Shown piece by piece: positions 17,941 through 22,238 of a stretch of DNA of 64,000 bases. Under the pieces are notes generated by a model, which ran no database searches, was not told where the DNA came from, and saw nothing but the letters and a program-made list of their open reading frames with translations. This DNA is from Gammaproteobacteria bacterium (GTDB lineage Bacteria; Pseudomonadota; Gammaproteobacteria; Tenderiales; Tenderiaceae): positions 12-64,011 of the forward strand of contig JAJRUN010000126.1 in the NCBI GenBank assembly GCA_024277755.1, read 5' to 3'. Each line of letters opens with the position of its first letter. Position 1 is the stretch's first letter. A program made the translations under genes and the position numbers.

Positions 17941-19980
17941 GTGAACAGGCCCACCAAAAAACATCGCTACAGCCTACTAATCCTAATCATACTGACCTGT
18001 TTAGCCTACCTACCCGGACTTAGCAATTTTATGCTCTCCGACGATATCCCAAATATCGCCAACAACCACGCAATCCAAATAGAAACACTCGACAGTAATA
18101 GCCTATTAACAGCTGCTAGCGCCAATGACAGTGGCCCACTAAAACGCCCACTTTCAAGTCTCAGCTTTGGTTTAAACTACTACTACTCTGGCAAACAGCT
18201 AGATGCATCAGATTTCAAAATAACAAACCTGGCAATTCACATTATCAATGGGATTCTAATTTATATAATTGCCTTATATTTAATAAAAGCGCTAAACATT
18301 CCAGCAAGAATCACATTACCCGAAAAACCATTAGCCCTATTCATTGCAGCGGCATGGGCGCTTCACCCTATCCAACTAACAGCCGTGCTTTATATCGTGC
18401 AACGCATGGCCAGCATGTCAGCTCTATTTGCCCTTGCAGGCCTGCTAGTTTTTATTATTGGCAGAATACGTTTTACAGAAAAGAAACCCTACGCTGCAGC
18501 ACAAATGTATATCGGCATAGGACTAGGCACTCTCCTTGGCGCTTTATGCAAGGAAAATGCATTATTACTACCATATCTGGCACTCGTAATTGAGATAAGC
18601 ATTCTTAGCAACCTAAGCCTCACCAACCAAAAACAGAAAAAACAACTCACTATCTTCTACAGTCTAACTGCTGGCATCCCGGCAATACTGGCACTTTTAT
18701 TTCTCAGCATGAATCCTGGGATCATTTTTAATGGCTATTCATTTAGGGACTTTACGCTCAGCGAACGAGTAATGACAGAATCCCGAATACTGATGCTTTA
18801 TATTGTGCAGATATTATATCCAGCTATACAAAATTTAACGCTACATCACGACAACATAGAAATCAGCCGCAGCCTTCTACAACCTTGGACAACACTAGTA
18901 GCTTGCTTATCAATAATAGCCTCTGTGGTACTTTCACTACGATTCAGAAAAAAACAACCAATTCTCGCCTTTGCCATTTTATGGTTCTTGGCCGCACACG
19001 CAATGGAGTCAAGCATACTTCCATTAGTACTGATGTATGAACACCGAAACTACCTTGCAAGCTTTGGAATCATCTTTGCCGCTGGCTATTACATTTACAT
19101 TCTCATCAATCAGCTCAGCAACAAGCCACTCATAACAACCGGCACGCCAATCATGATAATTATATGCCTTACCGCGCTAACGCATGTACGTTCAAACATT
19201 TGGTCAAGCCCTGAGACACTGACCTACTTCGATGTGAAAAATCATCCAGATTCAGCTCAAGCCCACTCATCCAGAGCTAAACACCTCCTACAATCTCATG
19301 GAGATATACTAGAAATATACGAGCACCTCAGAGCCAGTTCGAAGCTGAACCCGTCTGACCCAACCTCTCTTATGACCATGCAGCAATTGCTCGCAGCCCT
19401 TAAATCACAGATCACAAACGGCGAATGGATCAACAATCCAACTACAAACCAACCCAGTAGCTATGATGACAAACCAATAATCAATAGCATTTATATTGAT
19501 AAGCTGGCCCAACACATCAATCAAGAAACAAATGCTCGACTAAAACATCAAAAAATATCTGCAGCTACTGCAATGGCATTAAAATCCAGCAGTGAATGCG
19601 CCGTAAAATCCCAAGCACCACAGTGTTTGGCAGTCATTAATGAAATCCAAGAATGGCTAGATAGCGCGTTACAGAACCAAAGCCTTCCAGGCAACCAAAG
19701 ACCTATTATTTACGCCGCACGCGCATGGATAAACGCGTACAAAGGGGATATTGACCTAGCCTATAATGACCTCGACGCAGCCTACCAGGAGCAACCACAA
19801 GAAGTTTACCTGCTCATTGAAAAGCTAACATTGCATATCACTCTGCAAGAACGAGAAAAAGCAGACTTATTGATCCAGAAAATAGAAAGCCACCCATCTC
19901 TATCTCTGCATCACATACGTACCCTTAAAAACATTAAGCACGCCTTAAATAAACCCCAAAAAAACATCATTGACCATTAA
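17941..19980 (+). CDS. GT-C-fold membrane glycosyltransferase with C-terminal TPR-like domain (PMT/TMTC/DUF1736-like), paralogue 1
   Basis: 679 aa. Multi-spanning N-terminal domain with an acidic first-loop motif LSDDIPNI and the blocks WALHPIQLTAVLYIVQRM and MYEHRNYLASFG. Soluble helical-repeat C-terminus. GTG start. Confidence 0.65.
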   Translation: MNRPTKKHRYSLLILIILTCLAYLPGLSNFMLSDDIPNIANNHAIQIETLDSNSLLTAASANDSGPLKRPLSSLSFGLNYYYSGKQLDASDFKITNLAIHIINGILIYIIALYLIKALNIPARITLPEKPLALFIAAAWALHPIQLTAVLYIVQRMASMSALFALAGLLVFIIGRIRFTEKKPYAAAQMYIGIGLGTLLGALCKENALLLPYLALVIEISILSNLSLTNQKQKKQLTIFYSLTAGIPAILALLFLSMNPGIIFNGYSFRDFTLSERVMTESRILMLYIVQILYPAIQNLTLHHDNIEISRSLLQPWTTLVACLSIIASVVLSLRFRKKQPILAFAILWFLAAHAMESSILPLVLMYEHRNYLASFGIIFAAGYYIYILINQLSNKPLITTGTPIMIIICLTALTHVRSNIWSSPETLTYFDVKNHPDSAQAHSSRAKHLLQSHGDILEIYEHLRASSKLNPSDPTSLMTMQQLLAALKSQITNGEWINNPTTNQPSSYDDKPIINSIYIDKLAQHINQETNARLKHQKISAATAMALKSSSECAVKSQAPQCLAVINEIQEWLDSALQNQSLPGNQRPIIYAARAWINAYKGDIDLAYNDLDAAYQEQPQEVYLLIEKLTLHITLQEREKADLLIQKIESHPSLSLHHIRTLKNIKHALNKPQKNIIDH

Positions 19981-20180
19981 TAATTTATAAAGGACTATTG
20001 TTAACAGCAGTAATAAAAAATATAGCCAGTTAAAAAAACAACATATAAATGCAGAGACAAACACCATTGGCAAAGAACAGCCAGATAACAGCATTTCAAT
20101 ATGTGACGCAGGTCAGCTCCAATATCACGCCCCCTATCTCATAAAAAAACTCACTGCCATCAAGCCCGGAACCACCGCGA

Positions 20181-22238
20181 ATGCAAGCAATGAAATCAAC
20201 CAAAGCTAAGCACGTTTACAGTGTATTAATCATCACCATACTGACTAGCCTTGTTTATTTCCCTGGACTCAGTGATTTCTGGCTCGCTGATGACCGCCCC
20301 AACATCATTGCCAATCAGGCGCTAAAGATAGATTCACTAGACACCAACAGCCTCTTAGCTGCTGCAACATCAAACAACAGCGGCCCTCTCAAGCGACCAA
20401 TATCCAGCCTGAGTTTCGGCCTGAATTATTATTTCTCAGGCAAACAATTTGACGCTAGCGATTTCAAAATCACCAACTTAGCCATCCACATCGTCAATGG
20501 GGTGCTTGTTTATGCCATTGCTTTTTTCCTGATCATCGCATTAAAGCGATCAACAGCAAAAGACCTTCCTGTCAAAACCCTTGCCCTGTTCATTGCCCTG
20601 GCGTGGGCTCTGCACCCAATCCAACTGACCGCGGTGCTCTACCCGGTACAAAGGATGACCAGTCTATCGGGCATGTTTGTCTTTGCAGGCTTATTACTCT
20701 TCATTATTGGCCGATTACGCCTGGCGGCTAATCAATCCTACGCTTTGATACTGATGTATCTCGGCATAGGGCTAGGCACATTATTTGGGGCATTGAGTAA
20801 AGAAAACGCCTTATTGCTGCCTTATCTTGCCGTTGCAATTGAACTAACGATATTCAGTCAGTTGGTAACCACGGATAAAAGATTGCACGCCAGGGCCACA
20901 AAAATTTTCTATGCCACCACGGCAGTTATCCCGGCCACAGCAGCTCTTTTATATCTTGCAACTCACCCAGGCATCGTTACAAACGGTTACATGGTCTTTC
21001 CATTCTCACTTCCTGAACGGCTGATGACAGAAGCAAGGGTATTGTTCATGTATCTTGGGCAGATGTTCTATCCGGCACCGGCACAGTTTGTCCTTAGCCA
21101 CGACACCCTAACCGTCAGCAAAGGCCTGCTGCAACCCTGGACAACACTAATCGCCGCCCTGGGGATACTGCTACTCGCTGGCACCTCTCTACTAAAAAGA
21201 AAAGCCTACCCACTATTAAGCTTTGCTGTTCTCTGGTTTCTGGCTGCCCATGCCATGGAATCCACTGTATTTCCGCTACGATTAATGTACGAACACCGTA
21301 ATTACGTCGCCAGTTTTGGCATTATCTTTACTGCCATTTATTGCATATTCCTCATATCTAATATGCTATCGACAAATAAACTGATCCGACTTGTTCCGGC
21401 TATCATTATCAGTCTTTGCCTGGCTCTCGCCACCTATACACGTTCTGAAATCTGGTCAAGCTATGACTCCTTGAGCAGTTTCGACGTAAAAAACTACCCC
21501 AATTCAGCCATCGCACATTCGAATCGGGCAAAACACCTCATAAAAACCGCCGGCTCACTTAGCGACACCTATGAACACTTGAGGGCTGCGGTACAACTTA
21601 ACCCCTTAATCGCCGTCCCGTTAATTACCATGACGCAACTGCACACCGCCTTTCAAATAGGCATAGAGAACAACGCATTTGCCGTTGAAGAGACCAGCGC
21701 TACACCAGAAAATTATTATGCTCCTCTGAAGATGAATGGCGATTACATCAAAAAACTACGCCCACTTGTCAGCACAGAGCTTGAATCGAGACTGCGAAAT
21801 AACATGGGCGCCGAAACGATCTCAGTTCTCGCCACTGCTATTACCGCTGGGGTGACTAATAAATGTCGCATCAACGGCCCATGCGAGGAGCTCATAACTG
21901 ACGCTCTAAAATGGTCGCACATTGTTCTGCAAAACAAAGCGTCTCAACCACTACATAAAGCCATTATCTACAACAAACGCTCACAACTGCTTATTTATCT
22001 TGGCGATTACCGCAGCGCCCTTAGCGACCTTGATAAGGCCTATCAAGTAATGCCAGATAAGATTTATCTGCTATTTCAGAAACTTGCTTTACTGATGGCA
22101 TTAAGAGATCTTGAAAAGGCCGAGACACTGATAAACACTATAGAAGCACACCCAGCCTTTTCTACACTGCACCATGAGCCTTTAACCAAAGCCAAAAGTG
22201 ATTTGAGTTTTTTAAAGCAGCGCCAGAATAAACATTGA
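20181..22238 (+). CDS. GT-C-fold membrane glycosyltransferase with C-terminal TPR-like domain, paralogue 2
   Basis: 685 aa, colinear with the preceding ORF (LADDRPNI, WALHPIQLTAVLYPVQRM, MYEHRNYVASFG). The C-terminal domain is much more diverged. Confidence 0.65.
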   Translation: MQAMKSTKAKHVYSVLIITILTSLVYFPGLSDFWLADDRPNIIANQALKIDSLDTNSLLAAATSNNSGPLKRPISSLSFGLNYYFSGKQFDASDFKITNLAIHIVNGVLVYAIAFFLIIALKRSTAKDLPVKTLALFIALAWALHPIQLTAVLYPVQRMTSLSGMFVFAGLLLFIIGRLRLAANQSYALILMYLGIGLGTLFGALSKENALLLPYLAVAIELTIFSQLVTTDKRLHARATKIFYATTAVIPATAALLYLATHPGIVTNGYMVFPFSLPERLMTEARVLFMYLGQMFYPAPAQFVLSHDTLTVSKGLLQPWTTLIAALGILLLAGTSLLKRKAYPLLSFAVLWFLAAHAMESTVFPLRLMYEHRNYVASFGIIFTAIYCIFLISNMLSTNKLIRLVPAIIISLCLALATYTRSEIWSSYDSLSSFDVKNYPNSAIAHSNRAKHLIKTAGSLSDTYEHLRAAVQLNPLIAVPLITMTQLHTAFQIGIENNAFAVEETSATPENYYAPLKMNGDYIKKLRPLVSTELESRLRNNMGAETISVLATAITAGVTNKCRINGPCEELITDALKWSHIVLQNKASQPLHKAIIYNKRSQLLIYLGDYRSALSDLDKAYQVMPDKIYLLFQKLALLMALRDLEKAETLINTIEAHPAFSTLHHEPLTKAKSDLSFLKQRQNKH

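Follow-up and report, generated by a model that had tools for sequence, protein, structure and literature searches.

Two diverged GT-C-type membrane proteins encoded in tandem beside pilA are candidate pilin O-glycosyltransferases of a Tenderiaceae bacterium

Pilin glycosylation shapes phage susceptibility, adhesion and antigenicity. Why should a single pilin gene be followed by two diverged enzymes of the same kind? The question is raised by contig JAJRUN010000126.1 of the metagenome-assembled genome GCA_024277755.1 (85% complete; Gammaproteobacteria, Tenderiales, Tenderiaceae), of which positions 12 to 64,011 of the forward strand were analyzed. This whole stretch of 64,000 nucleotides is referred to as the window, and coordinates are those of the window unless another locus is named. 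Downstream of the type IV major pilin gene pilA, the window encodes two large membrane proteins of the glycosyltransferase-C (GT-C) type, here called A and B, followed by a glycosyltransferase of family 2 (GT2). From fold, motifs, gene context and phylogeny we infer the substrate, the donor and the functional difference of the pair: A and B may both be active GT-C O-glycosyltransferases of PilA, similar to TfpW and to the TMTC proteins, which would use one shared donor, differ on the acceptor side, and derive from two stacked lineages, not from a duplication in place. To this reading as a whole we assign an even chance.

The genes for A and B are co-directional and colinear, and BLASTP aligns their products end to end with 346 identities over 659 positions (53%, E=0, 10 gap positions). 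A preliminary description of this DNA, made from its letters alone, had proposed colinear open reading frames of 679 and 685 aa sharing long identical runs; both frames are present, and the runs SGPLKRP.SSLSFGLNYY.SGKQ.DASDFKITNLAIHI.NG and FLAAHAMES are found in A as well as in B. Identity was computed domain by domain, as that description had suggested, and the membrane core proved conserved (59.7% over residues 2–420) and the C-terminus diverged, with 55% over residues 421–480 and 33.2% over residues 481–679. The high identity claimed for the membrane domain therefore stands, although the quoted figure of about half was too low: the actual value is 60%, with 69–100% in the periplasmic external loops (EL) EL1, EL2, EL3 and EL5. 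The C-terminal part does align only patchily, its segments ranging from 22 to 51% identity, and values of 40–48% were obtained for EL4 and the transmembrane helices (TM) TM7, TM8 and TM11. Nonsynonymous divergence (dN, NG86) doubles from 0.33 in the membrane part to 0.66 in the C-terminal part.

At the DNA level the two genes are 56.6% identical, with 37.6% identity at third codon positions; synonymous sites are therefore saturated, and dN/dS is not computable for the pair. The longest exact word common to both genes measures 12 nt. Together with the DNA identity of 57%, this excludes an assembly artefact and a recent copy, in agreement with what had been concluded from the modest nucleotide identity, and recent gene conversion is ruled out on the same ground.

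Sequence searches did not place the membrane part of A and B in any described family. Neither Pfam nor NCBIfam returned a match to it, and the only matches were weak tetratricopeptide repeat (TPR) hits in the C-terminus of B. The Pfam domains PMT and PMT_2 were not matched by A or B, nor was Wzy_C or another O-antigen ligase domain, and TMTC_DUF1736 (PF08409) was absent from A and B both in hmmscan at E≤0.1 and in a six-frame search of the genome at E≤10. Searches of the PDB sequences, by phmmer with single sequences and by a profile of 117 sequences, gave only TPR or spurious matches and none on the membrane part. The GT-C label originally given to the pair is borne out by the fold instead. 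An AlphaFold2 model of full-length A, built from the 117-sequence alignment (predicted local distance difference test score, pLDDT, 95; predicted template-modelling score 0.93), contains 11 membrane helices up to residue ~420, followed by an all-helical domain. Because Foldseek matched this model only to TPR proteins (among them PilF, consensus TPRs and the TPR domain of OGT), the membrane part of B was modelled alone as residues 1–430 (pLDDT 94.5). The truncated model matched Pmt4 (9i5k), AftB (9dlh), STT3 and PglB at probability 0.99–1.00 and EmbA/B (7bvc) at 0.85; TM-scores of the GT-C matches on the query were 0.34–0.53, and the best match, Pmt4 9i5k, had E=1.1e-3 and a TM-score of 0.51. 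Matches to proteins other than GT-C enzymes, namely unrelated transporters and receptors, all had a probability below 0.2. Since every match at probability 0.85–1.00 is a GT-C enzyme, a GT-C fold of A and B is supported by the predicted structures; the E-values are modest, but the pattern of matches is unambiguous.

According to the derived topology, the N-terminus is cytoplasmic and the D34–D35 motif (SDDIPN in A, ADDRPN in B) lies in the first periplasmic loop, right after TM1; among the 117 homologues D34 is invariant and D35 at least 90% conserved. Further family-conserved residues are R69, later in the same loop, H142–P143 after TM3, K204–E205 between TM5 and TM6, R276, T279, R282, Y287, P294 and H303–D304 in the long loop EL4, and E356, E367, R369, N370 and Y371 in EL5. 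The periplasmic C-terminal domain contains a cysteine pair (C553/C562 in A, window 19597–19626) that is invariant in the 117 homologues and probably forms a disulfide; the loop between the two cysteines is longer in A (8 residues) than in B (5). In the public annotation, A (P0005, 649 aa) apparently begins at Met31 (window 17941–18033), which would delete the first membrane helix and put the DD motif at the very N-terminus. Residues 7–30 of A are conserved with B and with all homologues, and the GTG at 17941 is for this reason the likelier start. The family is without a covering Pfam model and is very large: with the membrane domain alone as query, 22,560 clusters (formed at 50% identity) reach E≤0.001 and 4,916 reach E≤1e-30.

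To our knowledge, TfpW of Pseudomonas is the only studied GT-C-type pilin glycosylase. Likened through its published description, it is also the closest known system to A and B in architecture and gene position. TfpW is the pilin D-arabinofuranosyltransferase of the Pseudomonas aeruginosa/paraeruginosa group IV strains Pa5196 and PA7; modelling shows it to be GT-C-like, and its reported features are 11 membrane helices, DDx in loop 1, Y-X6-P in loop 4, a TPR domain at the C-terminus and conservation beside pilA in several genera (preprint 10.1101/2020.04.19.049825). The pair shares with it the gene position directly 3' of pilA, where A comes first, and each protein has about 11 membrane helices ahead of a periplasmic TPR domain at its C-terminus. 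With respect to the TfpW motif YX6PFX7P, Y287-X6-P294 is invariant in the A/B family, neither the F after it nor the second P (at +9) is there, and the next invariant proline is P315. The systems also differ in donor genes: those for decaprenyl-phosphate-arabinose (phosphoribosyl pyrophosphate (PRPP)/DprE1/DprE2) accompany TfpW, whereas a GtrB/ArnC-like GT2 and an operon of the cytidine diphosphate (CDP)-hexose type are present here, and no DprE1, DprE2 or PRPP-transferase domain was found among the island genes (GT2, methyltransferases, short-chain dehydrogenases/reductases (SDRs), RmlC-like and nucleoside triphosphate (NTP)-transferase genes). In addition, two tandem copies occur here and tfpX is missing.

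The animal proteins TMTC1-4, O-mannosyltransferases of cadherins belonging to the GT-C clan of protein O-mannosyltransferases (PMTs), likewise combine 11 membrane helices with TPRs that follow on the lumenal side. Their published scheme places a DD in EL1 and a KE motif in EL3, adds an xxRP motif, and has EL4 as a catalytic loop (PMC7801869). Compared with it by eye, A and B contain the DD in EL1 and, further along the same loop, an xxRP motif (LKRP); TM3 is followed by an HP motif (ALHPIQ, as against AVHPIH in TMTC3), EL3 has a KE motif (KEN, as against KET/Q in TMTC), and EL4 is long and includes a juxtamembrane helix. Unlike the TMTC proteins (Pfam TMTC_DUF1736, CAZy GT105), A and B fail PF08409, presumably have pilin as acceptor, and would receive their donor from a bacterial GtrB-like enzyme. 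Pmt1/2/4 and mycobacterial Pmt, which include the best structural match to the B model (Pmt4), perform Ser/Thr O-glycosylation with a polyprenyl-phosphate sugar that a DPMS/Ppm1-like GT2 supplies; A and B differ in having no MIR domain, the C-terminal TPR domain standing in place of the loop-5 MIR. TfpO/PglL of P. aeruginosa group I, Neisseria and Acinetobacter, membrane enzymes likewise linked to pilin, carry out its glycosylation in the periplasm, but they belong to the Wzy_C/O-antigen-ligase-like family, to which A and B have no match, and use undecaprenyl-pyrophosphate oligosaccharide donors. The three-component systems (GtrA/GtrB/Gtr*, ArnC/ArnEF/ArnT; Mann & Whitfield; PMC11127046) couple a GT2 polyprenyl-phosphate sugar synthase with a GT-C, and one synthase can serve several specificity-determining GT-Cs, as with the serotype-specific Gtr enzymes of Shigella; they differ from the present locus by acting on O-antigen or lipid A where the presumed acceptor here is a protein, by the lack of TPR domains on their GT-Cs, and by a GtrA-type flippase, of which none was recognised here. 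By analogy, the locus resembles Gtr/Arn-type three-component glycosylation aimed at protein, and PMT/TMTC O-glycosylation. A and B would represent a known enzyme type and not a new kind of system, and the general picture of bacterial protein glycosylation would be unchanged by them; the tandem pair is uncommon among relatives, which carry only one version.

Nearest homologues were retrieved from a collection of 5.8 billion proteins, and all of them are metagenomic. On the maximum-likelihood tree, A groups with P0006, P0007, P0008 and P0011 (support 96/94) and B with P0009, P0010 and P0012 (support 100/99). Forcing A and B as sisters costs 142.7 log-likelihood units, and sister paralogues are rejected by the approximately unbiased (AU) test (p=6e-44). 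The term "paralogues" of the preliminary description, which suggests sister copies duplicated in place, is thus to be corrected; its view that the pair is not recent is confirmed, since the saturated synonymous sites and the 12-nt longest shared word indicate an old pair. Six of the relatives are single-copy GT-Cs encoded right after pilA and followed by the same GT2 (L004/P0007, L030/P0008, L031/P0011, L028/P0010, L029/P0009 and L032/P0006). Locus L032 encodes a pilin 93% identical to that of the window, only an A-type enzyme (77% identical to A) and a GT2 of 78% identity; locus L028 encodes a pilin of 91% identity, only a B-type enzyme (58% identical to B) and a GT2 of 81% identity. The same division is visible in the DNA, where L032 shows colinearity with pilA and A, and L028 and L029 with the last 12–15 nt of B, the GT2 gene and the sugar genes. 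Because each of the two is closer to single-copy pilA-linked genes of other genomes, the pair did not arise by duplication in place. Either recombination stacked two allelic lineages of a single hypervariable locus, or both copies go back to an old duplication and every sampled relative has since lost one of them. Other genomes of the same genus contain pilA-GT-C-GT2 cassettes with GT-Cs only 35–39% identical to B; the locus therefore appears hypervariable, which favours exchange. Neither a second pilA nor a pilin remnant nor the conserved pilA terminator was found in the spacer between A and B (19981–20180). The window can be regarded as a natural experiment with two diverged enzymes, one pilin and one donor synthase, to which the relatives add either enzyme alone with an almost identical pilin, so that what the TPR domain and EL4 specify is directly testable.

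The GT2 encoded after the pair (22299–23192, P0004) has NCBIfam matches to AglJ, dolichyl-P-hexose transferase, PpgS and ArnC, all below cut-off, and its PDB sequence matches are ArnC (1e-15), DPMS (2e-14) and GtrB (1e-12). The GtrB match spans residues 6–281 and includes the first of two C-terminal hydrophobic stretches, both read as putative membrane helices. Because its best solved relatives are ArnC, DPMS and GtrB, this GT2 is by homology a polyprenyl-phosphate sugar synthase, an enzyme class that is the usual supplier of GT-C donors (PMC11127046).

To see how far this arrangement extends, one scan of species-representative genomes was evaluated, which gave 78 loci in Gamma- and Betaproteobacteria, among them Methylococcaceae, Gallionella, Sulfuricaulis, Acidiferrobacterales, Cycloclasticus and Burkholderiales. 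A type IV pilin reading frame ends ≤700 bp upstream of the first GT-C at 55 of 65 testable loci, and a P0004-like GT2 (54–71% identical) directly follows the GT-C gene or genes at 41 of 64. Tandem arrays of two or three GT-Cs were detected at 27 of the 78 loci, with a P0004-like GT2 after all triple arrays (6/6). The module pilA-(GT-C)x1-3-GT2 is widespread and is typically how the family is wired in Gamma- and Betaproteobacteria. On a tree of 116 sequences, the members of some arrays are orthologous by position from genus to genus, indicative of old duplications that were maintained, and other arrays are lineage-specific sister pairs; the pair of the window falls inside one genus-level clade, independent of the arrays of other genera. 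Triple arrays between pilA and GT2 are found at L039, L042, L047, L048, L052 and L083, and their copies cluster across genera by place in the array (first, middle or last), each place with a clade of its own, a pattern that points to old, subfunctionalised sets. A rule of one enzyme per pilin is rejected, as the locus has a single major pilin gene and, across the 78 loci, the number of GT-C copies does not follow that of the pilins. No match to A/B-type genes was obtained by tblastn against plasmids.

The following mechanism is proposed. At the cytoplasmic face, the GtrB/ArnC-like GT2 would transfer a sugar from its nucleotide-activated form to undecaprenyl phosphate, as its homology suggests, and the lipid-linked sugar would then be flipped to the periplasm, for which the 301-aa protein at 29901–30806 is a weakly backed candidate. 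On the periplasmic side, A and B would each attach the sugar to Ser/Thr of PilA before pilin assembly, as suggested by fold, motifs and pilA linkage, using the DD-bearing first loop, the K204/E205 loop and the EL4/EL5 loops for transfer. As either lineage is found by itself with a nearly identical pilin, the pilin is probably the direct substrate of both, and a scheme in which one starts a glycan that the other only extends is less likely. They may differ in pilin sites or linkage, with EL4, TM7, TM8, TM11 and the periplasmic TPR domain as candidates for the parts responsible. A donor type common to both enzymes, as originally proposed, fits the single GtrB/ArnC/DPMS-like GT2 after the pair, and a shared donor with an acceptor-side difference seems most likely because one GtrB-like synthase serves this pair and the arrays elsewhere. 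More tentatively, and with odds that we place clearly on the lower side, we hypothesize that the pilA-linked GT-C is an exchanged, hypervariable "glyco-serotype" gene, that two of its allelic lineages, each serving the same pilin by itself in other genomes, are stacked here so that one pilin is decorated in two patterns at once, and that such stacking recurs in the arrays of two or three genes at about one third of related loci. If true, this would amount to combinatorial diversification of the pilus surface, for example against pilus-specific phages.

Several observations weigh against the proposal that A and B are PilA glycosyltransferases with one donor and different acceptor sites. Among the island genes no GtrA-type flippase was recognised. 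Only five positions show fixed differences between the A and B lineages, none of them in a catalytic loop, and the lineages are phylogenetic groups, not demonstrated specificity classes. Pilins that are 91–93% identical are paired with GT-Cs whose C-terminal domains are only 38–56% identical (A versus P0010 of L028), so the divergence of these domains does not track pilin sequence alone. Lastly, P0012 (L006 10001–11974), which at 57% identity is the nearest relative of B, is flanked by a gene for a chorismate-binding (TrpE-like) protein and one for an FlgT_M-domain protein, with no pilin, and a third family member in the same genome (G000:C132:27597-29498, equal to L112 6597–8498; 633 aa, 35% identical, with intact DD, HP, KE and EHR motifs) adjoins, as read by eye, a folD-like gene and a gene resembling Rrf2-type regulators, with no pilin nearby. 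Pilin is therefore not the sole possible substrate of the family.

Among the alternatives, the one that survives best, though we still consider it doubtful, is that the two GT-Cs use different lipid-linked sugars, for example a common hexose and the methylated 6-deoxyhexose of the downstream CDP-sugar operon, with two kinds of sugar on the pilin as the result. Within the membrane domain, conservation is lowest in EL4 and TM7/TM8, the region that binds the lipid-linked sugar in TMTC and other GT-Cs (PMC7801869), which counts for different donors. B-type enzymes moreover accompany a sugar cluster of the CmcI type at L029 and its remnant at L028, A-type enzymes accompany other sugar clusters at L004, L030 and L031, and the island does encode a second GT2; however, only one of the two island GT2s has GtrB/ArnC-like architecture, arrays of two or three GT-Cs elsewhere are followed by a P0004-like GT2, and the GT2 partners of A-type (77–78%) and B-type enzymes (81–83%) are nearly equally close to that of the window. 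At L028 (4180–4389), the closest single-copy locus of the B type, the CDP-sugar operon is missing except for a 69-aa CmcI fragment. This locus retains the membrane protein, the two GT2s and the B-type GT-C, so that the pilin-linked GT-C/GT2 pair is independent of that operon.

The residues of both copies were compared with those of the family. D34/D35, R69, H100, K204/E205, R276, Y287, P294, H303/D304, E356 and E367–Y371 are invariant or nearly so in the 117 homologues and are present in A and B, so that the catalytic apparatus is shared, as first suggested, with the acidic motif intact in both. Out of 95 family columns that are at least 90% conserved, A keeps 87 and B keeps 84, most departures being common to the whole local clade. 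B shows 12 private changes at sites invariant in the eight other clade members, mostly conservative and within the range of its relatives (0–16), and no homopolymer tract able to switch a gene on or off lies inside A or B. Both copies look functional by these measures, and pseudogenisation of B is rejected. An unlikely alternative is nevertheless that one copy, most probably B, duplicates the function of A or is a recombination leftover drifting to loss. It would explain the long terminal branch of B (0.57, against 0.17–0.30 in its nearest relatives) and the divergence of its C-terminal domain, which is only 26–43% identical to that of any relative, no closer relative of B having been found among the 5.8 billion proteins; it would also suit the fact that all sampled relatives manage with one copy. 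A relic is difficult to reconcile with the intact 685-aa frame and the retained catalytic residues, with a membrane domain that folds confidently in the model and, given saturated synonymous sites, with a frame of B that has stayed open for a long time.

Less probable still is that A and B form an obligate or preferred heterodimer, one machine like Pmt1-Pmt2 or EmbA-EmbB. Its best arguments are that the closest fold match is a dimeric PMT (the Pmt4 homodimer), that TfpW interacts with itself in two-hybrid assays (preprint 10.1101/2020.04.19.049825), and that tandem copies of other lineages form the position-specific orthologous clades expected of co-evolving partners; against these stand seven close relatives with one copy of either type beside pilA, from which each type works alone, and the tree and AU test, by which A and B did not co-diverge as a pair. 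That B, or both enzymes, act on a target different from PilA, for example on minor pilins, on a glycan or on some other protein of the periplasm or cell surface, is improbable to a similar degree. For this reading, one can point to the size of the family, to the pilin-free neighbourhoods of a relative of B and of the third paralogue, and to at least eight other prepilin-like proteins encoded in the genome, but the slot between pilA and GT2 is the conserved place of a pilin-linked enzyme, and the 3' end of B with the GT2 gene is colinear with the single-copy loci L028 and L029.

The features of the locus are collected in Table 1. Their order is pilS-pilR-pilA-A-B-GT2-sugar genes (opposite strand)-301-aa membrane protein-second GT2-pilB-pilC-pilD-coaE, with A beginning 91 bp past the end of pilA.

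Table 1. Positions of the pilin-linked GT-C pair and of the surrounding genes in the window
Feature	Position	Strand	Remarks
GT-C copy A	17941..19980	+	679 aa, GTG start; 11 membrane helices and periplasmic TPR-like domain
Spacer between A and B	19981..20180		AT-rich, 200 bp
GT-C copy B	20181..22238	+	685 aa; architecture as in A; C-terminal domain far from that of every relative
GT2, GtrB/ArnC/DPMS-like polyprenyl-phosphate glycosyl synthase, presumed maker of the lipid-linked donor	22299..23192	+	Pfam Glycos_transf_2
pilS, sensor kinase	14066..15685	+	Pfam 6TM_PilS, HisKA, HATPase_c
pilR, sigma-54 activator	15685..17046	+	Pfam Response_reg, Sigma54_activat, HTH_8
pilA, type IV major pilin, presumed acceptor	17394..17849	+	151 aa; Pfam N_methyl, Pilin
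Terminator- or attenuator-like GC-rich hairpin with T run, 3' of pilA	17873..17896		Kept in the pilA-to-GT-C spacer of all relatives
Nucleotide-sugar operon	23288..29574	-	NTP-transferase, 4,6-dehydratase-like, RmlC-like epimerase, two C-methyltransferase-like genes, SDR, CmcI-like O-methyltransferase
Multi-pass membrane protein, candidate flippase	29901..30806	-	301 aa; weak LPG_synthase_TM look-alike, Pfam E=0.33 only
Second GT2, without GtrB-like membrane anchor	30857..31729	-	290 aa
pilB, pilC, pilD, closing the island	31967..35832	+	Pfam T2SSE, T2SSF, Peptidase_A24

Between window positions 18000 and 32000 the G+C content is 42–46%, compared with ~51% in the flanks, which fits a horizontally exchanged cassette. 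Tracts of nine, eight and nine cytosines (C9, C8, C9) occur at 17115–17123, 23980–23987 and 24302–24310, i.e., upstream of pilA and inside two methyltransferase genes. The counterpart of the 301-aa membrane protein at L031 has a precomputed PF03706 match.

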